DNA from: a virus
Lineage: Duplodnaviria; Caudoviricetes
Reading direction: 5' to 3' (one strand)
IMG/VR virus record: IMGVR_UViG_2928768511_000002
Location: 11,660 to 75,659 of that record
DNA length: 64,000 bases
Positions 1,228 to 34,210 of this stretch are shown piece after piece. Position 1 is the stretch's first letter; every line of letters starts with the position of its first letter. The notes under the pieces are model-generated. The model saw only the letters and a program-made list of their open reading frames with translations. It had not been told where the DNA came from and did not search any database. A program made the translations under genes and the position numbers.

Positions 1228-1317
1228 AGTGCTGAGATCCGATGGGGCGAGGGCGCTGCGCGCCCCAGACCGTACCGTAACAGGGCCGGCGCGCGCGGTG
1301 TGCCCGATCGTAGAGCG

Positions 1318-1603: not shown

Positions 1604-1689
1604 AGGGCCTACATTGGCATTCGTGCAAACGAGGATGGGACCAGCAGGTCGGCATCCATAACCCCGGGCAGGGAACTCGTGTCCGGGCG

Positions 1690-1705
1690 TTTGCATGAAT
1701 GCAAG
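1690..1705. promoter_or_regulatory. Operator-like palindrome TTTGC-N6-GCAAA (variant)
   Basis: TTTGCATGAATGCAAG, intergenic; one of 7 related copies. Confidence 0.6.
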
Positions 1706-1729
1706 GATTTCGAAGGGGGCGCTCCGACC

Positions 1730-1876
1730 ATGATGACCGATCTCATGTTCGTAGCCGCATTAGGCCAACTGACGATCCAGCTTCTGACGCTGTGCTTCGG
1801 CGCGATGCTGATCCTGGCCGGAGCGCTCCTGCTGACGAGATGGATGGCCTCGGCCTCCGCCGATCTCGAAGACTGA
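1730..1876 (+). CDS. Small membrane protein (48 aa)
   Basis: Hydrophobic stretch IQLLTLCFGAMLILAGALLL downstream of the promoter. Confidence 0.5.
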   Translation: MMTDLMFVAALGQLTIQLLTLCFGAMLILAGALLLTRWMASASADLED

Positions 1877-1933
1877 GTTTCACAGAGCCCGTAGCAATGC
1901 CCTCGGCAGCTCGGGTCACCACTTGGGGGCGTC

Positions 1934-2206
1934 ATGGTTGACGACAAGGAACAGATCAGACTGCTCGACCTCGCGCTTGATGCGCTGGAGGACGAGCTGA
2001 AGAGCTGGACCCGTCTCGGCACTTGGAAGACCGGCGTCACCCGCCTTGTGCGCAATCCGCTGCACGCCGCGCCGCTCGGCGCACCGGTCGACAAGGACGC
2101 CGAGATCTCGTTCATCGACGTGCCGGACAACGAGGTCAACGGCATCCTGACCCGCGTCGCCATGGACAAGGTCGTCACCGTGCTCCGCAAGGAGCTGCAG
2201 GGATGA
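1934..2206 (+). CDS. Phage hypothetical protein (90 aa)
   Basis: Strong GC3 codon bias; ATGA overlap with the next gene. Confidence 0.7.
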   Translation: MVDDKEQIRLLDLALDALEDELKSWTRLGTWKTGVTRLVRNPLHAAPLGAPVDKDAEISFIDVPDNEVNGILTRVAMDKVVTVLRKELQG

Positions 2207-2448
2207 ACGTCGGCGAGTTCCTGCTGATCGCCGGCTGCTCGATCATCATCGCGGCCGGCATCACTGCCTGGCGCTTCAGGCCGAAGCCTCGGGTCTCGGG
2301 CTTCGGCGCCGAGGACGTCGAGCTGCTGACCATGCCGGCGCACGAGCGCGTCGCTCGCCAACTCTGCCGCTTCCACGGCCAGCCCGAATTCATGTGGCGC
2401 CGGTACACGGCGCTTGCCGTCGCCCAAATCCTGCAGAGGAAGCCATGA
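2203..2448 (+). CDS. Small N-terminally anchored membrane protein (81 aa)
   Basis: MNVGEFLLIAGCSIIIAAGITAW; translationally coupled on both sides. Confidence 0.65.
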   Translation: MNVGEFLLIAGCSIIIAAGITAWRFRPKPRVSGFGAEDVELLTMPAHERVARQLCRFHGQPEFMWRRYTALAVAQILQRKP

Positions 2449-2579
2449 GCCGTCGAAGACAGTTGCAGTTCATCCAGGCGCAGATCCGCGCTGAGCTTCA
2501 GGACCGCCTGACCCGCACGGTGCTCATCGCCTTCAGCATCTGCGCCGCCGCCAACCTCCTGTTCGGCGGCATCCACTGA
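2445..2579 (+). CDS. Small membrane protein (44 aa)
   Basis: ATGA coupling; C-terminal TM VLIAFSICAAANLLFGG. Confidence 0.55.
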   Translation: MSRRRQLQFIQAQIRAELQDRLTRTVLIAFSICAAANLLFGGIH

Positions 2580-2717
2580 TTTCAAGAGCCCGCTGACTGC
2601 CCCGAGCAGCGCGGGCCCACCCTTACCCATGAGGCCCGGCCAATGGCGAGATCGACGTACATCTACCTCGTCGTGCCGGCGGCGTCTTCGGCGCGCAGCT
2701 CGCAGACGAGGTGATCC

Positions 2718-2945
2718 ATGACAAGGCCTGACCCGATCTCAACATCACCGCTCGCCGCGATCGCGCTGCAGGCCATCACCCAGCTCGACAAGCTCGTCGG
2801 GCCGGTCGAGGCGCAGTTCTGGATGCAGCGATCCAACGATTTTCTCGGCGGAGTCACACCAATCACCGCCATCAAGGAACGACGTTCCGCCGACGTCATG
2901 GCTGCGGTGCGCATCGTCGCAATCGAAAAGGGGCTCTTCGAGTAG
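2718..2945 (+). CDS. Stand-alone Xre/MbcA/ParS antitoxin C-terminal (DUF2384-like) protein
   Basis: Motif AQFWMQRSNDFLGGVTPITAI...V matches the W..PN..LGG.TP pattern of DUF2384. Confidence 0.6.
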   Translation: MTRPDPISTSPLAAIALQAITQLDKLVGPVEAQFWMQRSNDFLGGVTPITAIKERRSADVMAAVRIVAIEKGLFE

Positions 2946-2964
2946 CCCCGGAAGGGAGCTGAAC

Positions 2965-3213
2965 TTGAAGGACCGCTACGCACTCGTCGCTGCGACCGAG
3001 CACATCGCTCAGCAGCTCCTCGACGCCTTCGGCCTCAAGGGCTGGGAGGCCTACGGCTACACCGCCGCGGTGACCGGCTCCCGCTTCGAGCGCCTCGTCA
3101 TCCTGCGCCCGCACTGGAACGCGACCGGCGCCGAGATCGCGCAGTTCGAGACCGAGTTCGTGCCGCACTGGCACACGCGCGTCCCGCCCGGCGGCACCTT
3201 CAAGGTGATCTGA
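2965..3213 (+). CDS. Phage hypothetical protein (82 aa)
   Basis: TTG start after GGAG; coupled to the next gene. Confidence 0.6.
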   Translation: MKDRYALVAATEHIAQQLLDAFGLKGWEAYGYTAAVTGSRFERLVILRPHWNATGAEIAQFETEFVPHWHTRVPPGGTFKVI

Positions 3214-3356
3214 TGAACCAGAACATCGTCAGCATCGTCTGTGCTGCCGTCCTGGTCTTCGCGACCGCCATCAACATCTTCGCCGCGTTCAAGCTGACAC
3301 GCGCCGAGGACAAGGTCAGCAACATCTTCTGTGTCGAGGCGCCGCAAGGGCGCTGA
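3213..3356 (+). CDS. Small membrane protein (47 aa)
   Basis: TGATG coupling; IVSIVCAAVLVFATAINIFAAF. Confidence 0.55.
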   Translation: MNQNIVSIVCAAVLVFATAINIFAAFKLTRAEDKVSNIFCVEAPQGR

Positions 3357-3591
3357 GGAGCGCTCATGCCGTTTCCGTATTCCTTTTCAGCTACGTCATC
3401 TGGCAAGCCTCCATCGAGCGGGCTTTCCTCTACACCCCCGTCGAGGTGCGCCAGTGAGATGCTTCAAGACCTTTGATCGTCTTCTCCTCCTCGCGCCCCT
3501 AATGCTCGTCATTGCAGCCGTCGTGGCGCTGCACCTGATCTGCCTGTTGTTCGGCTAGAGCACCCCCGGCGCGCAACCGAGCCACGCCAAA

Positions 3592-4092
3592 ATGAAAGCT
3601 CTGATCAACGCCCTCGCGGGCGTGCTGTTGCTGTGCGCCCTGACGCCAGCGTCGGCCAAAGACGTGCCTGTCCAGTTCACCTCTGGCCGGGCCGCGACGT
3701 TCATCACCGACGACCCCGGTGGCATCATCACCGACTTCGTCAAGAAGTACTCCGACATGCGCGACGCCGGCACCAACGTGGTGATCGACGGCGAGTGCGC
3801 ATCAGCCTGCACCATCGTGCTGGGCATTCTGCGCCCCGAGAAGGTCTGCGCAACGCCCGACGCCTCTCTCGGCTTCCACTCCGCCACGGCCATCACCCGT
3901 GAGGACGGCAAGGCGCCAGTCTTCGAGCACGCCGCCGAGATCTCCAAGCTCATCTTCAATAGCTACCCGGGCGAGGTCCGGGCCTGGCTGACGAAGCAGG
4001 GCTGGAACGGCGACAATCCCACAGTCATCTGGGCGAGGGGAGGTCAGGTCCGGAAGTTCATCCGGCCTTGCACCGCGGCGGACCTGTCGTGA
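3592..4092 (+). CDS. Secreted ClpP/crotonase-like fold protein
   Basis: Signal peptide; DPGG...VIDGECASACTIVLG...LGFHSA pattern. Confidence 0.65.
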   Translation: MKALINALAGVLLLCALTPASAKDVPVQFTSGRAATFITDDPGGIITDFVKKYSDMRDAGTNVVIDGECASACTIVLGILRPEKVCATPDASLGFHSATAITREDGKAPVFEHAAEISKLIFNSYPGEVRAWLTKQGWNGDNPTVIWARGGQVRKFIRPCTAADLS

Positions 4093-4439
4093 GCCGCCGC
4101 CCTCTGCCTGATCGGCGCAAGCTCCCGAAGATCATCAAGGTCGGGATCACGGAATTCGAGCTGATCCACTGGGATCCCGTCGAGGCGGAAGCCGAGGGAT
4201 GCCGTGGGCTCTGCAACGTCTTCGAATACCACATCAAGGTCCGGACCGATCTTCCGGACTCGCACTTCGCGGAAGTGCTTGAGCACGAAATCAACCACGC
4301 CTGCTGGGCGGCGGCGAAGCTCAAGTCCAGAGCCAGCGAGGAAACTGTCGTCAATCGCTTGACGCCTGTCCTCATCATGGCCCGCCGCGACAACCCCGAG
4401 ATCTATGCCTGGATCGATCGGGCGATCGCGAAAGCCTGA
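4089..4439 (+). CDS. Phage HExxH (zincin-like) protein
   Basis: GTGA coupling; motif EVLEHEINHA. Confidence 0.65.
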   Translation: MSRRPLPDRRKLPKIIKVGITEFELIHWDPVEAEAEGCRGLCNVFEYHIKVRTDLPDSHFAEVLEHEINHACWAAAKLKSRASEETVVNRLTPVLIMARRDNPEIYAWIDRAIAKA

Positions 4440-4441
4440 CC

Positions 4442-4750
4442 ATGTACAAGAACGTGATGGTCGCCTCTTCCAAGAGGCAGGCCACGGCGATGATCGCCTG
4501 GATGAAGCTCGACGCCGACGTGTGGGAGCCGCTCGCATATGGCGACCCCGTCACCAAGCTCTACGCGCACGCCAAGCTCGTGCGGCCGAGCGAGGGCGTC
4601 GACCAAGCCCATTCCGACTGGGTGTTCGAGAAGCTCGTCCCCAACCTGTGCCTGACGGCGACCACAGTTCCCCCGAACTGGAAGATCCCGCAGGAGCACG
4701 TCGAATACCGGCCAACAACAAGAACAACAAGCCTGGCGATAGCTTACTAG
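4442..4750 (+). CDS. Phage hypothetical protein (102 aa)
   Basis: ATG 2 bp after the previous stop; phage-like codon usage. Confidence 0.6.
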   Translation: MYKNVMVASSKRQATAMIAWMKLDADVWEPLAYGDPVTKLYAHAKLVRPSEGVDQAHSDWVFEKLVPNLCLTATTVPPNWKIPQEHVEYRPTTRTTSLAIAY

Positions 4751-4790
4751 CTGATTTTCGGCTATCATGGCCTTTGCATGGGGTATTTCC

Positions 4791-5534
4791 ATGATGAAGC
4801 CGATCTTTCGTTCGCTTCCTTTGCTCTTCTTCGGCATCGTGACTGCGCACGCCGTCGATGTGGTCACTATCAGTGAACAACAAATGCGTGCTCAAATAGA
4901 GCAGGGCCATTGTCCGGCAGATTTGACGCATGTCCAACAAACGACTGAGCGTACTCATGGATGCCAGGCGCTTTGCGGTGCGGCCAGCGCAAAGTTGTAC
5001 AATTGTTCTCCCGGCGCTGATGATTTTGTCGGCTATGAGCCCGAATGCATAAAGGAGGTGAACCGACTAAATGAGTTGATAAATCAATACAATCAGCACT
5101 TGGACAACTGCAAGGCGGCAGACAAGAGGGGCTCTCGGCAGCCAGCAAGTACTGGGAGCGGCTATACACCTCCGGCGACTGGAAGTGGATCATCAAGACC
5201 CAGCAGCTCGGCACGACAACAAAAGACTAAGACCGATGCACTCGGGGGGCCCATCACTGAGTCCGGTCGGGTATCAAAGGGAAGCCACAATCCGGGGCAG
5301 GAACCTAAGCAAGGCGGCAGAAATTGTGGCCGCTCCTATACCCAATGTAGTGAAAACTGTGGCAAAACCCCGAATTACTTAACTGCTTGCCGGGCCGAAT
5401 TTGCCAGCGATGTTGCCCGCAGGACCACCTCAGCTCTTTACGACTGTATGCAACGTGTCGATAAGCGTTGGGATGCATCTCACAAGCCACAATTTGATGC
5501 CTGTATGGATCGGTGTTTATGTAATTCTCGATAG
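4791..5534 (+). CDS. Secreted Cys-rich protein (moron-like)
   Basis: Signal peptide, two Cys-rich domains separated by a Ser/Gly/Pro linker; visibly more AT-rich than the flanks. Confidence 0.65.
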   Translation: MMKPIFRSLPLLFFGIVTAHAVDVVTISEQQMRAQIEQGHCPADLTHVQQTTERTHGCQALCGAASAKLYNCSPGADDFVGYEPECIKEVNRLNELINQYNQHLDNCKAADKRGSRQPASTGSGYTPPATGSGSSRPSSSARQQKTKTDALGGPITESGRVSKGSHNPGQEPKQGGRNCGRSYTQCSENCGKTPNYLTACRAEFASDVARRTTSALYDCMQRVDKRWDASHKPQFDACMDRCLCNSR

Positions 5535-6528
5535 AACGCCCGCACAGCCTGTCCGATGCGAAATGTCGAGGCCGCGATCGGCCAAGCGCTGACCAGTGAA
5601 GCACATGCCGATCTCGCGGCAAGTATTCGCGGGCGATCTGCGGCCCTCGAGCGGCACCGCGCGCGCAGCAAGCACATCAAAAGGTGTCGCGAAACACCAA
5701 GCTCACCGAGCTGCGCATCGAGCGCAAGCGCCGCCGCCAAAGCGCCGGCTTAATCGAACCACCAACCCCGGAGCACAGAACAGGGAGTAGGGACATTGAT
5801 CCCTGACCAACTGCTAAGACCCGGCCTGCGGCGGGGGTTTCCTCCTCCTTTACCCCGCCGCGCCCGATGACAAATCAGCTCTGCTGCAAAACATCGGGCA
5901 CCCAACGTTTCAACTCTAACCAGATAGGTGGCATCCCGCCCCGGTAACGGGTGTCGGCTCTAACGGGTAAGCCAGTATTCCCGTAGCCCTCGTAATTCTT
6001 CAAAGCGGCCTCTGAGGAGGAACGGCTGATCCCCGTCAACGCGATGCAGTTGAGGCATAGGTCGGTCGACTTCTGGATTGGACCGCCCCCACCTAATGGC
6101 TCGTGATGTCGCGCGGCGGCGTCATAGCGCACAGCCAATCGGCGAAGAGGTCCATGGTAAGTCGCCGACGACCGTTGTTACCATTCTGCCAGAGTGGTGA
6201 CAGAAGATCAGCGTGATGCAGATCGAGGTCGAAAGGATCAGAGTCGTCATCCTGCGGGATGGCGACGGTCACGAGCCAACTATTACTTCCCCAAGAGCGG
6301 TGACGCGACATGCGTCCAGCGCAGGAACTGCGCGATGGCGATGGTGCCCCACGAGCCCTGAGATCCGACACGAGGTGCTCCGCTCTTGCTATCTTTCCCT
6401 CGGTGCCAGCCGATCGTCACCTGATGACATAGGGGTGGCTGGTTAAATGGGGCCATGCGCCAAGCCGAGTGCTCACGAACTGTGAGCGCAGCCCGTCACC
6501 CATGCGGTGGCCGGCACCAATTCGCGGC

Positions 6529-7308
6529 CTAATATACCTGATCGCACAGGCAGCCGCCGGCATCGTTGATAGCTTTTCGACCTATCCCTGGGAAAAGGTG
6601 TTCTGCCTCCTCAGCAAGATCGCTACGTTTCGCCAAGCAAGTATCTTTGTCCCTGATGCCAATTTGCGCCAAACCGCCCTTGGCGCCGTTCACAAAGCTC
6701 ACTGCCCAGTACCACTCGGGACGTGCCATTTCCTTCGCGCATTTGAGGCTCTTCGGAGCGATAGATTTTGCGATCTGCTCGGCGTTGTCTTTGGCGTCAA
6801 TAAAGGCCCGGTTGATGTCGACACCTGCCTGTTCGATCCAACTCCGGCGGTGTGGAGGTGGCTCCGGCTCAATGGCGTGCACATGCAAGTCGTCGCCATA
6901 GGGTATACCGAATGTTTCGTCTATCAGGCGGGCGGCGCGCCTGCAGTATATAGGGTTGTTATACTTCCTGCACCATTTGGCGTGAAACAATGCGTCTTTT
7001 GCGTTGCGTACATACTCCGGAGAGCACGGTGCGTTTGAAGTTGAGCAGTCCAGAATCCTGCGACTGATTTCCTCTGCTTCCAAAGCGAGTGGATATGGAG
7101 GTGGATATTGGCGCAGATATTTTACTCCGGGCTCTTGGCATTCCTTCGCCATGGTCTCGGCATCCTCGTGGGCAACCGGGATATCTTGTTGGCAGTGTCT
7201 GAGGTGCTCACTTAAGAGCGCTCTCGCTGCGCTTTGAAGCTGATCCGCTGCAGCTTGAACAGGAGCAATGAAGAATACCGTAACGGCCAAATATAGAAGG
7301 TACCGCAT
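6529..7308 (-). CDS. Secreted Cys-rich protein (moron-like)
   Basis: AAGGAGG RBS before ATG at 7308; signal peptide MRYLLYLAVTVFFIAPVQA; many Cys. Confidence 0.7.
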   Translation of the reverse strand: MRYLLYLAVTVFFIAPVQAAADQLQSAARALLSEHLRHCQQDIPVAHEDAETMAKECQEPGVKYLRQYPPPYPLALEAEEISRRILDCSTSNAPCSPEYVRNAKDALFHAKWCRKYNNPIYCRRAARLIDETFGIPYGDDLHVHAIEPEPPPHRRSWIEQAGVDINRAFIDAKDNAEQIAKSIAPKSLKCAKEMARPEWYWAVSFVNGAKGGLAQIGIRDKDTCLAKRSDLAEEAEHLFPGIGRKAINDAGGCLCDQVY

Positions 7309-11145: not shown

Positions 11146-11538
11146 GTGATCCACTACGACATCGTTCAAGCCATCGAGTCCATCCGACCCGGTGCGAAGT
11201 TCACTCTCCGAGGTGACGACATCAGCGGCCTTGAGTGGAGTGACCCCACGCCAGCGCCGACCGCGGATGAAATCCTTATGGCCCTGCAGTCTCTGCCGAG
11301 GCCCGTCAACCCGCAAGATCTGATGGCACAGATCACCGTCGACGATGCCGCCAAGATCCAGGCCTACATCGCCGACAAGCCGCAGGCTTGGCTGCTCTGG
11401 GCGTCCTTCAACACCCAGAAGGACGCAATGCTGACCAGCAACGAACGCTTCAGGGCGGGGTGGTTCACGCTCAAGGACATCATCGGCGATGAGCGAATGA
11501 GCCAGATCGCCCAAGCACTTGGCATCACCGTAACCTGA
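11146..11538 (+). CDS. XkdW-like fibre assembly chaperone
   Basis: IVQAIESIRPGAKFTLRGDDISGLEW..P.PT..EI motif. Confidence 0.6.
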   Translation: MIHYDIVQAIESIRPGAKFTLRGDDISGLEWSDPTPAPTADEILMALQSLPRPVNPQDLMAQITVDDAAKIQAYIADKPQAWLLWASFNTQKDAMLTSNERFRAGWFTLKDIIGDERMSQIAQALGITVT

Positions 11539-11566
11539 GGCATGACGGCCTCGTATTGAGGCCCAA

Positions 11567-11980
11567 ATGTTTTCGCTCCTTCTCACGTTCCTTCCCGGGT
11601 TCGCGTCCGGCTTTCTGAACTGGCTCAGCAAGAAGACCGACGCGGACCTGGAGAAGTTCAAGACCTCTGTGGGCGGCGACGTCACGCTGAACGTCGCCGA
11701 GCTGCGCTACAAGGTCGAGGTCGCCCGCATGGCGGCCGAGATGCGCAAGGAGGACCGCGAGCACTGGTTCACCGCATGGATGGTTCCTGTCGCCTTCGCG
11801 GTCCTATTCTTTCACGTCGCGGCGGTCGTCTTCGACTCCATGCCGCTGCTCGGTCACGAGATCGGCAGCTGGAAGATCGCCGCGCTCCCGGCGCCCTACA
11901 ACACCATGCAGGAACAGATCGTCCTCACGATCTGCGGTGTCGCGGGCATCTCCACCATCAAGAAGATTTTCTCCCGATGA
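11567..11980 (+). CDS. Putative holin (3TM/GTA-type)
   Basis: N-terminal amphipathic helix, coiled region, DREHWFTAWMVP, two TM segments, basic tail IKKIFSR. Confidence 0.6.
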   Translation: MFSLLLTFLPGFASGFLNWLSKKTDADLEKFKTSVGGDVTLNVAELRYKVEVARMAAEMRKEDREHWFTAWMVPVAFAVLFFHVAAVVFDSMPLLGHEIGSWKIAALPAPYNTMQEQIVLTICGVAGISTIKKIFSR

Positions 11981-12309
11981 AATCCATCACCGACTCGACC
12001 CCGATCTCGGACGTGCTCGCTGCGCCGACACCAGTGCTTATCAAGTTTGAGGCGAAGTGGTGTCAGCCCTGCAAAGCGATGACGCCGATCGTCCAAGAAG
12101 TCGAGAAGGACTTCGATGGCAAGGTGGAGGTCTTCACTGCCAACGTCGAGCACTGCTCGCTTCTGGCGCAGCGCTTCAAAATCAACCAGATCCCGGCGCT
12201 AGTCGCGATCGACAATGGAATGGTCACCGCGGTCAAGACCGGCGCGGCCAAGAAGTCGGATATCCTCTCATGGATCGAGCTGGCGCTGCCAAGCCTTCAG
12301 AAGTCCTGA
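11977..12309 (+). CDS. Thioredoxin
   Basis: VLIKFEAKWCQPCK active site and cis-Pro motif IPAL. Confidence 0.9.
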   Translation: MKSITDSTPISDVLAAPTPVLIKFEAKWCQPCKAMTPIVQEVEKDFDGKVEVFTANVEHCSLLAQRFKINQIPALVAIDNGMVTAVKTGAAKKSDILSWIELALPSLQKS

Positions 12310-12542
12310 CCTACGATCCCGCCCAGGACTTCGGCTTCGAGATCAATCTAGCCGAAGGGACCATGACCTTCGAGGGCGGGTTCAAGGCCGATATCACCGA
12401 GATCCTCGACTGCTACGGCGATGAGACCGAGGACCCGGAGGAGGCTAGATACATCATCGTCGAGATGCCGCCTGACGGCCTGTGGGTGACGATCGACCTC
12501 AGCCAAGTCGGTCCCCAACAGGTTCAGGCCGCGCCTCACTAA
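12270..12542 (+). CDS. Acidic hypothetical protein
   Basis: Open frame with good codon bias; start uncertain. Confidence 0.5.
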   Translation: MDRAGAAKPSEVLTYDPAQDFGFEINLAEGTMTFEGGFKADITEILDCYGDETEDPEEARYIIVEMPPDGLWVTIDLSQVGPQQVQAAPH

Positions 12543-12567
12543 CCAGTCGCAAGAAAGAACAAGAACA

Positions 12568-13110
12568 ATGACTGATCTACCGCCGCGTCGCCGTGGACGG
12601 CCGACGAAGGAGGAGGCTGCCGCGCGCGAGGCCGCAGCGAAAGCCGCCGCAGAGAAGGATGCGGAGGAGGGCGCCTTTCTCGACGAGATCCTTTCGGCTC
12701 CCGTCCAGGCGCGCAAGACCAAGCTCCAGCCCGACGAAGACACGCTGCGCGCTCTCTCCGAGCTGGCGAAGCTGTTCTGCACTCAAGACGAGGCCGCAGG
12801 CGTTCTCGGCGTCAGCCGGCGCACGCTGGTTAGTTTTCTGAGTGAGCACGAGGTCGCCAGGGATGCCTGGGACGACGGGCAGCAGCGCGCGAAGGTTTCG
12901 CTGCGCCGGAAGCAGATGGCGCTGGCCGACAAGAACGCGCCGGCCTCGATCTTCCTCGGCAAGAACTATCTCGGCCAGAAGGACGAGAACCACACCAACC
13001 TCAGCGTCAAGACTGAGGCAGCTCAGATGACCGAGGAGCAGCTCCTGGAGATCGCAGCTCGAGCCCCGGCCGTACCTCGCACGCCGCCCAAGAAGGAAAG
13101 CGTCCACTGA
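12568..13110 (+). CDS. terS: Terminase small subunit
   Basis: AT-hook RRRGRP, HTH (TQDEAAGVLGVSRRTL), IFLGKNYLGQKD motif, position before terL. Confidence 0.75.
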   Translation: MTDLPPRRRGRPTKEEAAAREAAAKAAAEKDAEEGAFLDEILSAPVQARKTKLQPDEDTLRALSELAKLFCTQDEAAGVLGVSRRTLVSFLSEHEVARDAWDDGQQRAKVSLRRKQMALADKNAPASIFLGKNYLGQKDENHTNLSVKTEAAQMTEEQLLEIAARAPAVPRTPPKKESVH

Positions 13111-13124
13111 CGCCAACACAACAA

Positions 13125-13303
13125 GACCCCTGACGGGATCGATCGTGGCAGTCGGAGCTTCCGTTACCCGGTGACGATCGACCGCAATACTAAGTCCTGA
13201 AGCAACAGGACGATCCTCTTGGCCAGAGGGCGTGGGGTCCTCCTTTTCACTCTGACCGAGTTGCCGCTTCGGGGGCATCAGCGCGCGCCGCACGCCTTGG
13301 TCG
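13125..13303 (+). ncRNA. Candidate structured RNA between terS and terL
   Basis: Nested stems GACCCC/GGGGTC, GGATCG/CGATCC, ATCGT/ACGAT, GTCCTG/CAGGAC; second domain closed by TCTGACCGAG/CTTGGTCGGA with a cUUCGg loop. Confidence 0.4.
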
Positions 13304-13327
13304 GAGTCTAAACCTCAAGAGAAAATC

Positions 13328-14791
13328 GTGAACAGCATCACCGAGGTCTCCCCCGAGGAGGCCGCGGCCGAAATCCTGCGTCGTAGGAGGGGCCGCGAAC
13401 GCCTCATCGACTTCACCGAGTACACGCTCCACAAATACTATGCCGATCCCTTCCACCACATCGTGGCGGATGCGCTTGAGCGCGTTGAGCGAGGAGAATG
13501 CAAGCGCCTCATGATCTTCGCGCCGCCGCGGCACGGCAAGAGCGAGCTGTCGACCCGACGCTTCCCGGCGTGGTTCCTGGGACGCAATCCCGACAAGAAC
13601 ATCATCTCGGCGTCCTACAACGGCGACTTCGCCACCACCTTCGGCCGCGAAGTCCGCGGAATCGTCCGCAGCGCCGAATACAATCGGCTGTTCCCATCCG
13701 TCGCGATCCGGTCCGACAACCGCGCAGCAGACGAGTGGGAGCTGGAAGCCGGCGGCAAATACTTCGCAGTGGGCGTCGGCACCGGTACCACCGGTAAGGG
13801 CGCCAATCTCTTTCTGATCGACGACCCGATCAAGGATCGCAAAGAAGTCAAGTCGGCCAACTTCCGCCAGGACCAGTGGGACTGGTACCGCGACGTCGTC
13901 TACACCCGTCTCGAAGAAGACGCTGCAATCGTCCTCACGCTGACGCGGTGGCACTACGACGATATCGCCGGCCGCCTCATCGACATGATGAACGACGGCA
14001 AAGGTCTCCCGTGGGAGATCCTACTGCTGCCTGCGCTTCCCGAGGTCAAATGGGCTGAGGGTGAGGACGGCGTCAAGCGCATGATCCTCAACGAGGACGG
14101 CACAGTCCCAGGCGACCCGCTACGGCGCAAGCCCAAGGAGCCACTGGCACCGAACCGCTTCTCCTACAACGCGCTGATGGACCGCTCCGAGGTTCTCGGC
14201 GAGCGCTCGTTCTCCGCGCTTTACCAGCAGAAGCCGATGGCCGACGACGGCGGCTTGTTCCGAGCCGACTGGTTCGAGGCTCCGACTGAGCTTCCGGCCA
14301 AGCGCGTGCGCGTGCGCGCGTGGGACTTGGCGGCGTCATCTGACGGCGACTGGACGGTCGGTGTCCTGATGTCGAAGGACAGCCAAGGCATCTTCTACAT
14401 CGAGAGCGTCATCCGCTTCCGCGGCTCTCCGCTGGAGGTCGAGAAGAAGATCTTCGAGACAGCCAGAAACGACGGACGATCGGTCTCGATCATCATCCCG
14501 CAAGACCCGGGCCAGGCCGGCAAGAGCCAGGCCCAGAACTTCATCCGCCGGCTCGCCGGCTACATCGTCAAGACACCGCGCCCCACTGGTTCGAAAGAGA
14601 CCCGGGCTGCCGCATTCGCTGCGCAGGCCGAGGGGAGGAACGTGAAGATGGTGGTGGGCAGTTGGAATGACTGCTTCACCGACGAATTGGAAACCTTCCC
14701 CCTTGGCGTCCACGACGACCAGGTGGACGCGGCTTCCGATGCCTTCAACGAACTCCTCGGTCCACGCAAGGCGGCGATCCTTGACTGGTAA
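13328..14791 (+). CDS. terL: Terminase large subunit
   Basis: Walker A APPRHGKS, Walker B LFLIDDP, nuclease motifs AWDLA and HDDQVDA. Confidence 0.95.
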   Translation: MNSITEVSPEEAAAEILRRRRGRERLIDFTEYTLHKYYADPFHHIVADALERVERGECKRLMIFAPPRHGKSELSTRRFPAWFLGRNPDKNIISASYNGDFATTFGREVRGIVRSAEYNRLFPSVAIRSDNRAADEWELEAGGKYFAVGVGTGTTGKGANLFLIDDPIKDRKEVKSANFRQDQWDWYRDVVYTRLEEDAAIVLTLTRWHYDDIAGRLIDMMNDGKGLPWEILLLPALPEVKWAEGEDGVKRMILNEDGTVPGDPLRRKPKEPLAPNRFSYNALMDRSEVLGERSFSALYQQKPMADDGGLFRADWFEAPTELPAKRVRVRAWDLAASSDGDWTVGVLMSKDSQGIFYIESVIRFRGSPLEVEKKIFETARNDGRSVSIIIPQDPGQAGKSQAQNFIRRLAGYIVKTPRPTGSKETRAAAFAAQAEGRNVKMVVGSWNDCFTDELETFPLGVHDDQVDAASDAFNELLGPRKAAILDW

Positions 14792-28102: not shown

Positions 28103-28318
28103 ATGGCAAAAGCAAAGAACGCGGCCACCGAAGAGGTGGTCGCGGTGGAGCCGCAGGCTCCCGAACCGGCTCCGATCATGTATGAGGTAACCCTGAACGG
28201 TCGCTTCACTCACATGGACTTTCCCTACCTGCCTTCGCATCACCACATCGTCGACAAGGCGATCTACGATGCGATGGTCGAAGCGGGGGTAGTTGCCGAT
28301 GTCAAGCAACTTTCCTGA
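28103..28318 (+). CDS. Small tail-module protein (71 aa)
   Basis: Coupled within the tail operon. Confidence 0.6.
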   Translation: MAKAKNAATEEVVAVEPQAPEPAPIMYEVTLNGRFTHMDFPYLPSHHHIVDKAIYDAMVEAGVVADVKQLS

Positions 28319-29993
28319 GCTTGTATTCAGCGACGACGAAGACTTCACGGCAGACCGATTGAACTTGGCGATGCAGGTGCTGGATCAGCGCCTGCGTTCG
28401 CTGGAGCCTTTTTCTCCGAGCTGGGAGCAGGCGGTCAACGATCTGCGTCTGGTCGGACTCTCTCGACTGAACGACGCCATCCTGCCGGCGTATCAGCGCA
28501 TCCAGCTGCTGTCCACGCTCGGCTTCCTGTTTGCTGGCTCGTCCAGCGAAGTCACTCTTACCCAGGACATGACCGCGACGTTTGTCATTGACGACGAGAC
28601 GGAAAAGTCCCTGTTCACCCCGACGCCATTCCTGGCGCTGACCCGCTCCTCGACGATCGATGACTATGCGATTGCGCAGTTGATCTCGTATGAGCAGGCG
28701 ACCGGCACCTTGATGGTGAAGGTCAAATCGATCACCGGCAGCCCTGGTCCTTTCACGGACTGGCAGATCGGCGCCTGTGCGGCGTCAACCATCGCGGCGA
28801 TGGCCTACTTCACGCAGATCGATGCGGCCCGCAACGCAGCCAACGTTGCAAAGGCAGCAACAGCTGCCGACCGCGTACAGACCGGTCTCGACCGCATCCA
28901 GACGGGTGTGGATCGGAATGCCGCGGCGCAGTCGGCTGTAGCAGCGTCTGCCTCTGCTGACCGAGCCGGCACCTGGGATCCGACCAACTACGCCCTCAAG
29001 TCGTATGTGGACGGCAAGATCCAAGCGCTGGTCGGCACCGCGCCGGCCACCCTCGACACGCTCGCGGAAATCGCGGCGCAGATGCAGGCGGACGAGAGCG
29101 GCTTTGCCGCGCTGTCCACCACGGTCTCCGGCAAGCTGACGGCAACGCAGAACCTGAACGACCTGACCGACAAGGCACAGGCTCGCATCAATCTGGGCGT
29201 CACTTTCGCCAACCCGACCAGCAAGTCGGGCCTAACGGCGGCGAACGGGTCGGCCGTTACCTACATGCGGTCTGATGCTGCACCTGCGATCGACGTTTCG
29301 ATCGCGCCGACCTGGACCAACAAGCACATCTTCCAGTGGAACTCTGGAGCGACATACTGCATCAACGTCCAGACCTATGGCGGCTTGACCATCTACGCGC
29401 CGGACCAGGGCTCGGCGTTCATGACGTTCCATCGCGGCGCATACGCGAGCCAGTTTGGGCTCGACGGTGACAACTACTACCGATGGGGTGGTTGGTCGGA
29501 TGGTGCTGGCGGAGTCCGTATGTACCTGAGCCCTGGTGGCTTGTTGTACAGTGCAGGTTACGGCGCCTCGACGACGCCTGTTGGTGGTCAGGTGCGCGCG
29601 GCCGGCGACATCATCTACGGCCTGTCGGATCAACGTCTGAAGGACGACATCCAGATCATTGAAGATGCTCTGGAGAAGATCGACCAGCTCGATGGCGTCA
29701 CCTGGGTTCAGAGCGATCTGGCCCGCGAGGTTGGTGCACCGGTTCAAGACCGTCGCAAGGCCGGTCTGTTGGCGCAGCAGCTGGAGAAGGTTCTGCCCGA
29801 AGCGGTCGGCCTGGCTCCGTTCGACACGAACAAGCTGATGAAGAGCCGTACGGGCTTGAACCTGCTGAACATCCAGTACGAGCAGGTTTCTGGTCTGCTG
29901 GTGGAAGGCATCAAGGCGCTGAAGCGCAAGAACGACGCGCTCGAAGACCGAGTCGCACGGCTCGAAGCGATCATCGAGAAGCTGGGGGTGTAA
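28299..29993 (+). CDS. Tail fibre with C-terminal peptidase S74 intramolecular chaperone
   Basis: APATLDTLAEIA fibre motif; SDQRLKDDIQII...AGLLAQQLEKVLPEAV...QYEQVSGLLVEGIKAL. Confidence 0.9.
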   Translation: MSSNFPELVFSDDEDFTADRLNLAMQVLDQRLRSLEPFSPSWEQAVNDLRLVGLSRLNDAILPAYQRIQLLSTLGFLFAGSSSEVTLTQDMTATFVIDDETEKSLFTPTPFLALTRSSTIDDYAIAQLISYEQATGTLMVKVKSITGSPGPFTDWQIGACAASTIAAMAYFTQIDAARNAANVAKAATAADRVQTGLDRIQTGVDRNAAAQSAVAASASADRAGTWDPTNYALKSYVDGKIQALVGTAPATLDTLAEIAAQMQADESGFAALSTTVSGKLTATQNLNDLTDKAQARINLGVTFANPTSKSGLTAANGSAVTYMRSDAAPAIDVSIAPTWTNKHIFQWNSGATYCINVQTYGGLTIYAPDQGSAFMTFHRGAYASQFGLDGDNYYRWGGWSDGAGGVRMYLSPGGLLYSAGYGASTTPVGGQVRAAGDIIYGLSDQRLKDDIQIIEDALEKIDQLDGVTWVQSDLAREVGAPVQDRRKAGLLAQQLEKVLPEAVGLAPFDTNKLMKSRTGLNLLNIQYEQVSGLLVEGIKALKRKNDALEDRVARLEAIIEKLGV

Positions 29994-29994
29994 G

Positions 29995-30228
29995 ATGGCC
30001 GTTCCGTCATCTGGCGCTGTCGGCTTCTCGACCGTCAACTCCGTCTTCGGCTACGGCATCGCGATGAGCAGCTACGTCGGCCGGCCCTACTACTACTACG
30101 AAGTGAACTGGGGCGTTAGGTCCGGCACCTTCCCAGGCTCCAACTTCCCGATGTCTCTCTTCTACGGGAAATCCAACCACGACGAATGGAACTGCGCCTG
30201 CGCCTGCGCCTGCGCGTGCGGCAAGTGA
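29995..30228 (+). CDS. 77-aa protein with C-terminal (Cys-Ala)4-Cys motif; candidate modified substrate
   Basis: MAVPSSGAVGFS...MSLFYGKS...EWNCACACACACGK. Confidence 0.8.
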   Translation: MAVPSSGAVGFSTVNSVFGYGIAMSSYVGRPYYYYEVNWGVRSGTFPGSNFPMSLFYGKSNHDEWNCACACACACGK

Positions 30229-30234
30229 GGATCA

Positions 30235-30555
30235 ATGACCAAGCCACCGAGCACCACCTTCAGCTACCGGATCAATCACTGGAGCAAGGACGGCTGGGCT
30301 CGAGTCGAGTATCGGCACGAGACGCTCGGTAGCTTGGTCAAGCAGGTCTTCATCCCGCTGAACCATTCGGAAGAGGAGCAGCGTGGCGCCGTCATCATGC
30401 AGTTCCCCTGGCAATCCTTCCACGCCAGGTATCTTGAAATGTTGGCGCAGGCGGCTGCTCCGGCCCCTGCGGCAATGGAAGGACAATTCACGCACCGCAT
30501 CGATCGTCCCATGGAGGATCCGGTCGGTTTGCCCATGGAAACCCAAAAGGTGTAG
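30235..30555 (+). CDS. Hypothetical protein (106 aa)
   Basis: GAGG RBS overlapping the previous stop. Confidence 0.7.
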   Translation: MTKPPSTTFSYRINHWSKDGWARVEYRHETLGSLVKQVFIPLNHSEEEQRGAVIMQFPWQSFHARYLEMLAQAAAPAPAAMEGQFTHRIDRPMEDPVGLPMETQKV

Positions 30556-30557
30556 CG

Positions 30558-31103
30558 ATGCAGTTCAGGCGCATCCGTTTCGAGAACTTCACGATCACGA
30601 TCTTCACGGCGCATGCCGGCGAAGAGAGGGTCTGTCCTCCGTCTGAACTAACCCGCGGCCTGACCGCGTCAGACGCTCCGGCCATCGCTCACCTGCTCGA
30701 AGGCAAGGATGATGCTCGGCCGCTCCACACCATTCCGGTGTACACCAAGGGAGGCTTCGAGGCTCTCGGCGGCGATCACGCGCCGGACCCTCGCCCGGCT
30801 GGTAGCGGCGCCACTCAGTTCGTGAGGGGCATCGACAACTACAAGCTCCGCGCCACAGCGGCGGATAGCGAATATCACTGCATCACCCCGAAGAGCAAAG
30901 AGCCGGTGTTCTGGCAGCGCTCATTCGTCGGCGGGAAGGCCGGCGACACGTTCGAGGTTCTGCCCAACAGCTACCTCTACATCGCAGAGGGCAAGATCGA
31001 GCTGGCTCACCGAACGTTCGTCGGCCCCACGATGCTTGAGATCACCAAGCCGCACACGGCCAAGATCACCGATCCGGTGATGGGCGCCAAGCTCTGGCGC
31101 TGA
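30558..31103 (+). CDS. Hypothetical protein, possibly cupin-like (181 aa)
   Basis: Beta-rich C-terminus SYLYIAEGKIEL...FVGPTMLEI. Confidence 0.6.
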   Translation: MQFRRIRFENFTITIFTAHAGEERVCPPSELTRGLTASDAPAIAHLLEGKDDARPLHTIPVYTKGGFEALGGDHAPDPRPAGSGATQFVRGIDNYKLRATAADSEYHCITPKSKEPVFWQRSFVGGKAGDTFEVLPNSYLYIAEGKIELAHRTFVGPTMLEITKPHTAKITDPVMGAKLWR

Positions 31104-31113
31104 AAGGAGCCCC

Positions 31114-31743
31114 ATGCCCACGATCCGCTTCCTGACGCCTGCCGACTTTGGCGATATGTGCGACATCATCGACAAGCACAGCAGCGGCATGGGCGCATGG
31201 TGCAACGATCCGAGCGCCCCGGTGAAACCGAACTTCCGCCAGCTCGCGAAGGACCATGTGGACCTTTGCTTCGAGCAGGCTATGTCGAACTTCTGGGGCT
31301 ATTTTGACGACTCCGGCAAGCTCGTCGCCTGGGTCAACTTCACCCGATGGGCTGATCCGATCAACATCACCATCCGCTCCGTAATCGAAGATCCGGACGC
31401 CGACCTGCCGCGCCGCGTTGGCGCTGTCTGGTCGGAAGCCGCGGTCGATCTGGTGAACTGGGGCATGGGGTACTTCTGGTCGGAGGGCGTCGAGAATTTC
31501 TGGTGCCGCATGTATGCCGGCAAAGAGGATCGGCACATCTCGGATCACCCCAACTGCATGCTGACTCAATACCAGCGCGAAAGGGTCAAGTTCATCCGGG
31601 CCGGCGAGCAACCGCCGCCCGAGTATCGCAGGGTCAGCTGGTCGCCGTTTGACGACGACACAGCGATCTATCGGTTCTCCGACACATTGCCGCTGCTGGC
31701 GTATCTCGAAAGTGCAAATGATCCGACTGGAAATGCTGAGTGA
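31114..31743 (+). CDS. Possible GNAT-fold protein (209 aa)
   Basis: N-terminal IRFLTPADF and WGYFDDSGKLVAWV strand pattern; fold call tentative. Confidence 0.5.
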   Translation: MPTIRFLTPADFGDMCDIIDKHSSGMGAWCNDPSAPVKPNFRQLAKDHVDLCFEQAMSNFWGYFDDSGKLVAWVNFTRWADPINITIRSVIEDPDADLPRRVGAVWSEAAVDLVNWGMGYFWSEGVENFWCRMYAGKEDRHISDHPNCMLTQYQRERVKFIRAGEQPPPEYRRVSWSPFDDDTAIYRFSDTLPLLAYLESANDPTGNAE

Positions 31744-33016
31744 GAACGGAGAGGTCGTGCCTCTGTTCTACGATCAGCACACCTCACGTCTGCTCGACAA
31801 GGACGGCTTCAAGGCCGTCGACTACACCAACAACCCGATGTATGACCCGGAGCCATCGCAGCGCCGGCCGTTCATCGCGGTGGACTACGATCAGCCAGGG
31901 CGTAAGGTCCGCGAGGTCCGGAAGCTGAAGATCCAGCTCGGCCTCGGCTGCAACAAGTCCTGCTCATACTGCCTCCAGGCGATACAGGTTCAGAAGGCCG
32001 CGGCGACAAGCACGCGGGATGCGTCGGAATTTCTGGCGAACATCGACGGCTGGATCGTCAACCCGGAGGGGATGGAGAAGGTCGAGCTTTGGGGTGGCGA
32101 GCCGCTGCTCTACTGGAAGAAGATCGAGATCCTCGCCCCGGCGTTGATCACGAAGTTCCCGAACGCTCAGTTCTCGATCATCACGAACGGCGAGCTGCTC
32201 ACTCGAGAGATCGTCGATCAGCTCAAGGCCTGGAATTTCTCTCTGACCATCAGCCACGATGGCCCGGGGCAGGCGGTAAGGGGAGACGACCCGTTCGAAG
32301 ACCCTCACAAATTTGCCATGATCCAGTACGCGCAGAAGACGTTTCATCCGCGCTTCTCGTTCAACGCTGTGCTCACCCCTAAGAGCCACGACGTCAACGC
32401 CATCATCGACTGGTTCCACGATTACTTCCCGGGCTGCAACGTCGGCTTCGAGGGAGTCGTTCACAGCTACGCCAGCGACCCGGCATCGATCTTCTCGATC
32501 GAGCAGTTGGCGCAGTTCAGCGACACGCTGTCCCGACAGCTGGCCGATGGATCGGCTCTCCGATCCCCGGCGATCATGGACAAGCTGCGCAGGTCGGTGA
32601 ACTCGTTCGTCAATGAGCAGTCCTCGAAGACGCTGTTCCAGAAGTGCGGCATGGACATGCCGGAGTATCTGGCGGTCGACCTGAAGGGCAACGTCATGAC
32701 CTGCCAGAACGTGGGCGCCAACGGCAACCACAAGATCGGGCACGTCAGCGACTTCGAGAACATCGCGCTCAACACCTCCAAGCACTGGAGCAAGCGCCCA
32801 GAGTGCCAGAGCTGCCCCGTGCTGCAGCTTTGCCAAGGCGCCTGCATGTACCAGGGAGGGGACAACTGGACGCACAGCTGCAACGCTGAGTTCTTCTACA
32901 ACCTGGCCTTCTTCAGGGCCGCGCTCTTCATCCTCACGGGACGATGGCTGGTTGGTTTCAGCGGCGACATCGTGCGTCCGAAACTGAAGAAGGATCGCGA
33001 TGTCGAAGTTCGCTGA
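31718..33016 (+). CDS. Radical SAM/SPASM domain enzyme
   Basis: CNKSCSYC (CxxxCxxC), WGGEPLL, ITNG, ISHDG; SPASM C-x13-G-x4-C ... CQSCPVLQLCQGAC ... C. Confidence 0.92.
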   Translation: MIRLEMLSENGEVVPLFYDQHTSRLLDKDGFKAVDYTNNPMYDPEPSQRRPFIAVDYDQPGRKVREVRKLKIQLGLGCNKSCSYCLQAIQVQKAAATSTRDASEFLANIDGWIVNPEGMEKVELWGGEPLLYWKKIEILAPALITKFPNAQFSIITNGELLTREIVDQLKAWNFSLTISHDGPGQAVRGDDPFEDPHKFAMIQYAQKTFHPRFSFNAVLTPKSHDVNAIIDWFHDYFPGCNVGFEGVVHSYASDPASIFSIEQLAQFSDTLSRQLADGSALRSPAIMDKLRRSVNSFVNEQSSKTLFQKCGMDMPEYLAVDLKGNVMTCQNVGANGNHKIGHVSDFENIALNTSKHWSKRPECQSCPVLQLCQGACMYQGGDNWTHSCNAEFFYNLAFFRAALFILTGRWLVGFSGDIVRPKLKKDRDVEVR

Positions 33017-33731
33017 ACTGGTGGGGATTCTTGACAAAATACCCCACCTGTTCTTAGAAAAGGCCTACGATGCGACACGTCTACAAAACGAGTTAGACGC
33101 CATCGATCCGGCACTTTTCGTGCCCTTCCGTTCCAAGAGCAGAAACGCTGACCACATCGCCGAGTTCTGGCGAGGTCTTTCGCTGGTCGCTCCGAGCGGA
33201 TCTCTCCATGACGATTTGACCGAGGTTCCATACGAAGGCCGTACAGGCTACGTCTGGACCCTGGTCGCCGAGAGCAGCCCCTACATCAAGCAGCTCGTGA
33301 CCGAGCTTGGCGGGGAGGGGCAGCGCGCGCGGCTCATGTGCGTGAAGGCAGGCGGCAGTCTGACCTGGCACCGCCATGGATCAGAGCTTTCGATGATCGT
33401 CGGCGCCCACGGCCGGCGGCCGAACTGGTACGAGCTGATCGTCCACGTCCCCATCCGCACCAACCCGGACTTCAGCTACGAGGTCATCGACACTCGGGTC
33501 TACGAGCTGGCGGACTACTCGGCCGGGAAGCTGGAGATCCACCGGAAGAACTACCCGCAGGGCGAGGCCTGGGCGTTCAACGGTGCTCACTACCACAACG
33601 TCTTCAACCGCTCCGAGACCGAAGACCGCTACGCCATCATGCTGACCCTCGACATCAGGATGAGGAAGACGTTCGACATCGTGTCGAAGGCGGTCGAGAG
33701 CTACGAGGGGCCACTCCTGACAGGGCTCTGA
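33000..33731 (+). CDS. Aspartyl/asparaginyl beta-hydroxylase-like 2OG-Fe(II) oxygenase
   Basis: RARLMCVKAGGSLTWHRH, IVHVPIRTNP, GEAWAFNGAHYHNVFN...RYAIML. Confidence 0.8.
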   Translation: MSKFAELVGILDKIPHLFLEKAYDATRLQNELDAIDPALFVPFRSKSRNADHIAEFWRGLSLVAPSGSLHDDLTEVPYEGRTGYVWTLVAESSPYIKQLVTELGGEGQRARLMCVKAGGSLTWHRHGSELSMIVGAHGRRPNWYELIVHVPIRTNPDFSYEVIDTRVYELADYSAGKLEIHRKNYPQGEAWAFNGAHYHNVFNRSETEDRYAIMLTLDIRMRKTFDIVSKAVESYEGPLLTGL

Positions 33732-33732
33732 A

Positions 33733-34155
33733 ATGGAAACCATCATCTCCGCGAAGCCGCCCGACGTGCTCGCGGACAACTTCATTGTCGCCACGAACGA
33801 AGACTGGGTTCGTGAGTGGCAAATCAAGAACAGCGGCGTGATCGTCCCGATTCAGCCCGACTGGAAGCTGTACATGCAGCTGCAGCGGACATCGACCGGC
33901 GATCTTGGCGTGACGTGCTCTACCGACAATGGCCGCCTCGTGGTCGTCGATCAGGGCGCCGGCAAGTTCGGTCTCAGGCTGAAGCAGGCGGACGCCGCCC
34001 AGATCAGCCCTGCGGGCTACCAATATGACATCGTCCTCGTTGCTGGCGATGGCATCTACCGCCTGGTGACAGGCACCATCACGGTCGACCAGGGGATCAC
34101 CAACATCCCCGGCCAGGAGAAGTGGATTCACTATCCGCTGATCCTTCGACCGTAA
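33733..34155 (+). CDS. BppU-like Ig-fold adaptor protein
   Basis: YQYDIVLV...RLVTGTITVDQGIT motif. Confidence 0.65.
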   Translation: METIISAKPPDVLADNFIVATNEDWVREWQIKNSGVIVPIQPDWKLYMQLQRTSTGDLGVTCSTDNGRLVVVDQGAGKFGLRLKQADAAQISPAGYQYDIVLVAGDGIYRLVTGTITVDQGITNIPGQEKWIHYPLILRP

Positions 34156-34180
34156 CTCATCGCCAACAACACACCTCCAC

Positions 34181-34210
34181 GCCGCCCCCTTCCGGGCGGC
34201 CTTTTTGTTT
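34181..34210 (+). terminator. Intrinsic terminator
   Basis: GCCGCCC/GGGCGGC stem then CTTTTTGTTT. Confidence 0.65.

Follow-up and report, generated by a model that had tools for sequence, protein, structure and literature searches.

The stretch analysed here, referred to as the window, comprises 64,000 nucleotides (positions 11,660 to 75,659) of IMG/VR record IMGVR_UViG_2928768511_000002, a 75.6-kb provirus record from a Bradyrhizobium prophage. The genes considered belong to a myovirus tail module with the order baseplate J, baseplate I, a 752-residue protein, a tail fibre with a C-terminal Peptidase_S74 (S74) domain, a protein of 77 amino acids, three proteins of 106, 181 and 209 amino acids, a radical S-adenosylmethionine (rSAM) enzyme, two proteins of 243 and 140 amino acids, a terminator-like hairpin and then the sheath, tube and tape measure genes. 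This study concerns the 77-residue protein. It ends in an alternating run of Cys residues, hereafter called the ladder, and the rSAM gene lies 1.5 kb 3′ of it, on the same strand, between the fibre and sheath genes. We show that ladder and rSAM gene are genetically coupled across phages, at more than a hundred loci, and we propose that the protein is probably a detachable fibre tip carrying the putative substrate of the enzyme. The features of the region are as follows (window coordinates).

28293-29993, + strand: tail-fibre protein of 566 amino acids with a C-terminal Peptidase_S74 intramolecular chaperone (PF13884, 9.9e-14, residues 445-505; many PHROG tail-fibre families).
29995-30228, + strand: 77-residue two-part protein, N-terminal module plus C-terminal Cys ladder (open reading frame, homologues, codon comparison).
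29995-30171, + strand: N-terminal module, residues 1-59, a putative fibre-attachment domain (profile positions 1-59 are common to adhesin-type proteins).
30190-30219, + strand: Asn-Cys ladder N66-C67-A-C-A-C-A-C-A-C75, then GK and the stop codon; putative rSAM substrate (fits N-C-(x-C)n).
30235-30555, + strand: 106-residue cassette protein, without Pfam, PHROG or NCBIfam match; homologues confined to the clade having the N-terminal module and ladder, locus L209 included.
30558-31103, + strand: 181-residue cassette protein, without family match; homologues in loci L002-L017, L209 and L210/211.
31114-31743, + strand: 209-residue cassette protein immediately 5′ of the rSAM gene; unrelated proteins hold this position in other clades.
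31718-33016, + strand: radical SAM/SPASM enzyme, 432 amino acids from the ATG of 'MIRLE...' (Pfam Radical_SAM 8.3e-11; phrog_1802 2.4e-55; TIGR04085).
33000-33731, + strand: 243-residue protein with a weak Asp/Asn beta-hydroxylase-like (cupin) signal (PF05118, E 0.0034, below cut-off); Bradyrhizobium-type loci only.
33733-34155, + strand: 140-residue protein like tail-fibre assembly proteins, last gene of the unit (phrog_1084 1.8e-9; phrog_3304 'L-shaped tail fiber protein assembly' 5.4e-6).
34181-34210, + strand: strong terminator-like GC hairpin (34181-34200, 7 GC pairs) followed by a T-run, tail CTTTTTGTTT.

The 77-residue open reading frame (ORF) was first considered. A sequence-only reading of the window had pointed to a Cys tail with a TGCGCC codon repeat at 30193-30219, to a YYYY run and to an N-terminus containing ...MSLFYGKS, and all of these are borne out by the ORF and the DNA. 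Indeed, the protein ends in ...HDEWNCACACACACGK, with the ladder at residues 66-75 (N-C-A-C-A-C-A-C-A-C, all spacers being Ala); positions 30193-30219 read TGCGCC three times, then TGCGCG, then TGC; and the YYYY run occupies residues 32-35. The ATG codon stands 1 base past the TAA of the 566-residue fibre gene, with a Shine-Dalgarno-like GGGGG run 7-11 nucleotides 5′ of it. A word-indexed search yielded 22 homologues, 62-86% identical, in Bradyrhizobium genomes and metagenomes. They have in common an invariant N-terminus (MAVPxSGAVxFSTVNxVFG) and a near-invariant tail (HDEWNC-x-C-x-C-x-C-x-C-(G/S)K), while the middle of the family is variable and has in-frame indels. Cys codons alternate between TGC and TGT from locus to locus with the Cys residue kept, and synonymous differences between the genes equal or exceed the non-synonymous ones (17/15, 20/11 and 17/7 differing codons). 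Because the tail and the N-terminus are conserved while the Cys codons swap synonymously, the ORF is a real gene under purifying, protein-level selection; the same protein conservation and synonymous changes rule out a chance ORF or a slippage artefact. The protein has no match in Pfam, PHROG or NCBIfam, tblastn against 50,697 phage records gave a chance-level match only, and the ESM Atlas returned nothing beyond viral clusters without names, at 0.89. Two tandem copies of the small protein are present in loci L002/L014.

The hairpin at 34181-34210 is predicted to close a single transcription unit running from the fibre gene to the gene of the 140-residue protein, in which the small protein and the rSAM enzyme would be co-transcribed. 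No comparable terminator-like site was found on the + strand in 28405-34180.

The enzyme itself has the hallmarks of a radical SAM/SPASM protein. It scores 42.8 bits against PF04055 (cut-off 29.5) and 39.8 bits against the SPASM model TIGR04085 (cut-off 27). The CxxxCxxC cluster motif is present (C77, C81 and C84 in a 431-residue reference) and invariant in the alignment across clades, as is the full seven-Cys SPASM motif (C309-x13-G-x4-C328, C362-x2-C-x5-C-x3-C375, C387). Its best curated matches are the thioether formers PapB, QhpD and CcpM and a nif11-type maturase, and among solved structures it is nearest to 8vpo_A, anSME and CteB. As judged from these sequence comparisons, it is an uncurated subfamily of peptide- or protein-modifying SPASM enzymes, closest to the thioether formers. 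Ahead of the core, residues 1-70 (31718-31930) form an extension of about 60-70 residues in which Y17, S22 and L24 are invariant across clades; this extension is a candidate substrate-recognition element.

In order to follow the association of ladder and enzyme across phages, IMG/VR was scanned from both sides. On the enzyme side, a scan seeded with the rSAM alignment gave 78 viral loci with homologues 35-99% identical. At 54 of these 78 loci an ORF on the same strand carries a ladder of four or more Cys, usually 0.6-3 kb upstream, and NCNCxC ends, which are shorter, occur at four others; in most of the rest the sequence breaks off upstream. The window rSAM is 35-48% identical to the rSAMs of other ladder loci. 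On the ladder side, viral contigs were searched with a DNA pattern for CNCNCNC, without use of the rSAM, and 120 stretches were obtained, 45 of which encode an in-frame C-terminal ladder. An rSAM gene follows on the same strand, 4-7035 nucleotides downstream, in 37 of the 45; for the other eight, the downstream sequence is in every case shorter than 3.4 kb. In the control classes, an rSAM gene accompanied 2 of 27 internal or short-ORF matches and none of the 48 out-of-frame ones (Fisher p = 1e-20). The same cassette as in the window accompanies the small protein in 12 of the 12 Bradyrhizobium-type loci having enough sequence. At 35-48% identity, the rSAM further has homologues in phages of unrelated kinds, for example the Achromobacter siphovirus JWF and Ralstonia phage RSP15 (Ackermannviridae), and in both the gene stands beside tail-fibre genes.

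At least six unrelated families account for the proteins whose genes lie between ladder and rSAM. When proteins upstream of the rSAM were compared between clades with hhalign, probabilities were below 2%, one pair excepted. A conserved helper protein beside the rSAM, considered as a candidate, was dropped, since hhalign shows the accessory proteins of the clades to be unrelated apart from that pair. Ladder and rSAM are thus the only conserved pair of the cassette, and they are genetically coupled in both directions. The sequence-only reading had taken the Cys tail for the core peptide of the rSAM or for a metal or Fe-S site; this two-way co-occurrence supports the first of these, and from it we infer that ladder and enzyme are substrate and modifying enzyme. 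Two loci stand somewhat apart. In L096 and L144, the ladder ORFs (123-131 amino acids) have a run of C-Q-x-C-Q-G repeats in addition to a terminal NCNCDCNC ladder; the corresponding rSAMs score much lower (about 106-108 bits) and may form a second subfamily.

Occurrence of the Cys tail only alongside the rSAM had been put forward as a check, a tail just as common among homologues from phages lacking the enzyme being the refuting outcome. Among homologues of the small protein, a radical SAM gene was found near every lineage keeping the tail, and the refuting outcome was not seen. In P0028 the cassette is minimal: S74 fibre, ladder protein, a 197-residue protein and the rSAM. P0050 has a ladder with Val spacers and an rSAM nearby. 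P0030 has a ladder and, 3.2 kb upstream, a Pfam Radical_SAM gene whose sole record is that Pfam match, the contig having come without DNA. In lineages without a ladder, the result was the converse. P0065, which ends in DCGGNCVK, has no rSAM within 3.3 kb on either side; the gp38-like, ladderless P0036 has no homologous rSAM, only an unrelated one; and, in a DNA pattern search, none of 10 viral loci with the ISMSDFYGK motif had an rSAM. Ladderless lineages with enough flanking DNA are few.

We then considered where the ladder is placed in its proteins. Of the 60 distinct ladders in the rSAM-anchored set, 51 reach to within 8 residues of the stop codon. Three forms are found: the ladder is the extreme C-terminus, or a Hint domain comes after it, or an S74 cleavage motif does. 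Fibre-type proteins of about 430-620 amino acids in other phages have the ladder as their end. In the fibre gp028 of JWF, ...QNCNCDCNCNCS runs straight into a self-cleaving Hint domain (CFPAGTMVL...), so that the ladder would become the mature C-terminus once the protein is processed. A ladder also directly precedes a Hint domain in L019 and L073, and in L054 the sequence ...NCNCNCNCDC is followed by the S74 cleavage motif LFSDDRLKDK. This arrangement suggests that the ladder is a feature of the mature end of the fibre.

Two groups of loci show multiple ladder proteins. In L019 (4184-7236), two collagen-like (GPPGPPGPP) fibre proteins, each a fusion with ladder and Hint domain, lie beside the rSAM. 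In L043-L048, L059 and L065 (for example L043, 5600-6600), three tandem paralogues of about 95 residues end in NCNCxCNC upstream of the rSAM; a fibre-type motif (...LSQFTNDLGNY) opens each of them, and together they might make up a heterotrimeric tip.

The residues of the ladder itself follow a pattern. Asn precedes the first Cys in 54 of the 60 distinct ladders. The spacers, counted with related sequences included, comprise 127 Asn, 42 Ala, 17 Asp, 16 Arg and 8 Gln, with no Gly among 229. Where a Cys follows at i+3, the spacer is Asn, Ala, Asp or Gln in 90-100% of cases, against 65% for the last spacer, which has no such Cys. N/A/D/Q at i-3 of each Cys, with a relaxed last spacer, is the pattern predicted by an overlapping array of NxxC-type beta-thioethers. 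An Asn-only acceptor, also considered, is ruled out by the Ala spacers of the window. Natural variants with Ala or Val spacers show that the ladder can do without Asn in its interior.

The N-terminal part of the protein was studied by a profile search of the family against 1.84 billion representative proteins. It retrieved 79 representative clusters, most of which match positions 1-59 at their own N-termini. About 20 clusters are small proteins (69-111 amino acids) made of the module, a (D/N)EW motif and the ladder. About 50 are longer proteins (150-535 amino acids) with positions 1-59 at the N-terminus and no ladder, the C-terminal parts of which match phrog_2056 'tail fiber; host specificity' and the Pfam families Gly_rich_2 and GP38. 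A likeness of the N-terminus to small proteins that follow tail fibres, proposed in the sequence-only reading, thus holds by profile search. Genes with the module directly follow an ORF with an S74-like end in the window, L002-L006, L210/211, L225, L226, L213, L208 and L215; this gene order occurs in at least eight lineages, with the ladder and with long adhesin-like parts alike.

An AlphaFold2 (AF2) model of the module in P0046, for which a deeper alignment is available, reaches a pLDDT (per-residue confidence) of 95-98. Its elements are ordered helix, helix, strand, strand, helix, and the same order is seen in the poor model of the 77-residue protein. Among 48,161 PDB chains, the sole match of the module was a weak one to 6f45_D, the gp38 of phage S16 (residues 2-46; Z 2.8, root-mean-square deviation 2.4 Å over 44 residues, 27% identity). 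The structure 6F45 shows the gp38 adhesin of S16 on the tip of the gp37 fibre, the part matched being the fibre-attachment domain, and gp38 is monomeric (PMC12032242). BFVD also gave weak matches of the module to Gp38-domain proteins. The adhesin-like relatives, the gene order behind S74 fibres and the weak gp38 match support indirectly that the N-terminal module docks on the fibre. The 566-residue S74 fibre is the likely docking partner. A trimer presenting 15 Cys, as suggested by the sequence-only reading, is not supported, gp38-type adhesins being monomers (PMC12032242).

The region was compared with that of the related Bradyrhizobium phage BDU-MI-1 (KY940711, locus L001), whose sheath and tube proteins are 84% identical to those of the window phage and which also has the N-terminal part of the fibre in common with it. 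BDU-MI-1 has neither the small protein nor the rSAM. In its positions 11435-13959, as aligned with 28293-34155 of the window, a glycine-rich adhesin-like protein of 198 residues and a protein of 146 residues replace the fibre end and the cassette of ladder and rSAM. Because BDU-MI-1 has another fibre end, without small protein or rSAM, the region 3′ of the fibre is an exchangeable host-recognition slot, and the difference looks like a clean swap of a host-range module.

Two further observations concern the genes next to the rSAM. The last 17 nucleotides of the rSAM gene are also the first of the gene of the 243-residue protein, and this protein could hydroxylate Asn or Asp near the ladder. In L209 (8001-12185), a cytochrome P450 gene lies directly 3′ of the rSAM.

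Taken together, these results make it probable, in our judgement, that the 77-residue protein is a minimal, detachable tail-fibre tip protein with a Cys ladder on which the rSAM would act; the modified ladder would probably contain overlapping thioether rings. In the mechanism that we propose, the module (residues 1-59) would anchor the protein on the S74-processed upstream fibre, at its distal end. Ahead of assembly or in its course, the rSAM/SPASM enzyme would modify the C-terminal ladder N-C-A-C-A-C-A-C-A-C-G-K in the cytoplasm. It would link the sulfur of Cys(i+3) to the beta-carbon of residue i, in an NxxC-like manner, so that stacked, overlapping thioether rings would form; the ring pairs in the 77-residue protein would be N66-C69, A68-C71, A70-C73 and A72-C75. 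The outcome would be a rigid, covalently stapled fibre tip. Thioether cross-links, unlike disulfides, could form in the reducing cytoplasm and would resist reduction. A broader proposal is more tentative, and we put it at somewhat less than even: in phages of all tail types, one dedicated rSAM/SPASM enzyme would make interlocked thioether rings at the C-terminal tip of the host-recognition fibre, the 77-residue protein being the smallest free-standing form, with a gp38-like docking module and a cross-linked end. On this proposal, the rings of the all-Ala variant in the window would be lanthionines made by a radical route.

The closest chemical parallel is the streptococcal RaS-RiPP pair NxxcB/NxxcA, in which Cys and the Asn beta-carbon of an NxxC motif are joined by a thioether and in which NxxcB accepts Ala, Gln and Asp too (PMC9389541). 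As there, an rSAM/SPASM-type enzyme is encoded beside a Cys-bearing substrate, the ladder can be read as overlapping (N/A/D)xxC motifs, and the acceptors Asn, Ala, Gln and Asp are the dominant ladder spacers. Unlike NxxcA, the substrate would be a folded virion-type protein or fibre end and not a short secreted peptide, with many overlapping motifs instead of one. The likeness to NxxcB is one of motif and context, the enzyme sequences not having been compared directly. The enzyme also resembles PapB (freyrasin), the CteB/SCIFF ranthipeptide maturases and QhpD/QhpC in having a full SPASM domain with two auxiliary clusters. PapB, CteB and QhpD install several Cys thioethers in one substrate, and QhpD acts on a protein subunit, not on a peptide antibiotic. 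Unlike in these systems, the Cys spacing of the ladder is i+2 and not CX3D, and the context is a phage tail operon. In the CXXX-repeat system (maturase TIGR04115, targets TIGR04114/TIGR04117), Cys recurs at every fourth residue, whereas it recurs at every second one here; moreover, our cassette has a single rSAM of another subfamily and a short, strictly C-terminal ladder.

As to structure, the parallel is with the gp38 of T2 and S16 (6F45). Here as there, the gene is placed directly 3′ of the fibre gene and the protein combines a small N-terminal module with a variable distal part; sister proteins with the same module have Pfam GP38 or Gly_rich_2 regions. Unlike gp38, the 77-residue protein lacks the beta-helix or polyglycine (GRM) sandwich and has instead a 12-residue Cys ladder, only 18 residues being left past the module. 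No match between it and gp38 was found at the sequence level, with Pfam or with the profile against PDB sequences. The His-x-His iron needle of T4 gp37 likewise places alternating ligand-type residues at the extreme distal end of a fibre. That needle, however, is built with His, belongs to the trimeric fibre chain and needs no enzyme of its own.

Several observations weigh against the interpretation in terms of a docked, thioether-ringed tip. First, an rSAM is not always accompanied by a ladder of several Cys in the DNA covered. In the relative P0077 (L209) the tail has a single Cys (NEWTGADCSGGGK), yet the locus retains a 48%-identical rSAM together with homologues of the 106-, 181- and 209-residue proteins and a P450. 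Because this single-Cys protein keeps its rSAM, a ladder of rings is not obligatory. In RSP15 (L008) and in L064, an rSAM homologue is the neighbour of fibre or large structural genes, and no Cys ladder was found in about 7-8 kb on each side of it; the substrate there is either farther away or of another kind. Second, the rSAM scores below all curated cut-offs: 75.6 against 340 for PapB, 65.5 against 453 for QhpD, 60.7 against 500 for CcpM, 36 against 425 for SCIFF and 43 against 349 for anSME in NCBIfam. The rSAMs of four other clades gave the same outcome. Because the enzyme is so far below the cut-offs of the curated maturases, its chemistry could differ from thioether formation. Third, the spacer statistics count related sequences, and the contrast between positions does not represent independent events; 15 of the Arg at the last spacer apparently come from one group of near-identical ladders, L023-L039. 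Fourth, the structural part is a weak lead: the AF2 monomer of the 77-residue protein is poor (pLDDT 49.5), the gp38 fold match was not reproduced by Foldseek against the PDB, which found nothing, and the module profile gave only chance-level matches to PDB sequences (E about 0.3 and above). The gene itself, its two-part build and the coupling of ladder and rSAM are thus shown, while we infer that the enzyme acts on the ladder, that the module docks on the fibre, that the protein is part of the virion and that thioethers form in the ring pattern given above.

Other explanations were weighed with these points in mind. The ladder might be a metal site (Zn, Cu, Fe or Fe-S) at the fibre tip, its thiols lying on one face of a beta-strand, with the rSAM acting elsewhere or helping to load the metal; such a site would be a Cys counterpart of the His-x-His iron sites of the T4 gp37 needle. 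CxC runs are typical of metallothioneins, metal ions line the tip of T4 gp37, and the ring scheme proposed above leaves C67 over. In addition, SPASM enzymes bind a substrate Cys via an auxiliary cluster (PMC9389541), so that metal affinity is inherent to such tails. However, a metal site leaves the near-obligate two-way coupling to one rSAM family unexplained, metal binding does not need spacers held to N/A/D/Q and never Gly, and the single-Cys relative retains its rSAM. We therefore regard this explanation as unlikely.

A second explanation, which we judge equally unlikely, retains the ladder as substrate and changes the chemistry: the enzyme might convert Cys to formylglycine in the manner of anSME, form alpha-thioethers (sactionine), epimerise residues, or cross-link one chain to another or the small protein to the fibre. 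The presence of anSME among the closest structures and the NCBIfam matches, the annotation of the JWF homologue as an anSME, and the fact that no curated family cut-off was attained are in line with it. Against this, PapB and QhpD score above anSME, and N/A/D/Q at i-3 of each Cys, without Gly, fit a side-chain acceptor at the C-beta better.

That the 77-residue protein is instead the precursor of a secreted peptide of the ribosomally produced, post-translationally modified (RiPP) type, a bacteriocin or a signal carried as prophage cargo outside the virion, seems very improbable. A small protein with a conserved N-terminus beside an rSAM/SPASM gene is the classical RiPP layout. Yet no protease or exporter/transporter family was detected in the seven cassette proteins with Pfam, PHROG or NCBIfam, and the gene lies between fibre and sheath genes in one late operon. 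Nor is the N-terminus a simple leader: it is a folded module (pLDDT 95-98 in P0046) common to adhesin-like proteins of 150-535 residues, and the same ladder is found at the end of fibre-type proteins (about 430-620 residues) or ahead of Hint or S74 domains. Finally, a fibre-assembly chaperone not retained in the virion, like T4 gp38, is suggested by the gp38 position of the gene and by gp38 homologues being either adhesins (T2, S16) or chaperones (T4), but is just as improbable given that the fibre has its own S74 intramolecular chaperone, that a separate assembly-like protein ends the operon and that other phages carry the ladder within the fibre chain itself.

Cassettes with rSAM genes have been noted within the host-recognition cluster of pelagimyophages (PMC7029224). 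In the open literature we found no description of fibre tips modified by an rSAM or otherwise modified enzymatically and covalently. To the pair of ladder and rSAM, the window locus adds a free-standing 'mini-adhesin' form, the tie to S74 fibres and the variants with Ala or Val spacers.

Host choice of a phage is set by the tips of its tail fibres, and our results indicate that phages probably modify these host-binding tips chemically. If true, virus particles would have a new class of maturation, RiPP-style radical chemistry on one of their proteins, and this would account for the unannotated rSAM cassettes in phage host-recognition clusters. It would also bring a new substrate class and a new Cys spacing to the thioether-forming radical SAM enzymes. 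Host-range engineering and prediction would be affected, and a fibre transplanted without its enzyme might fail. With its 77 residues and simple Ala spacers, the protein of the window would be an ideal model substrate for the chemistry of the ladder and its role in adsorption.

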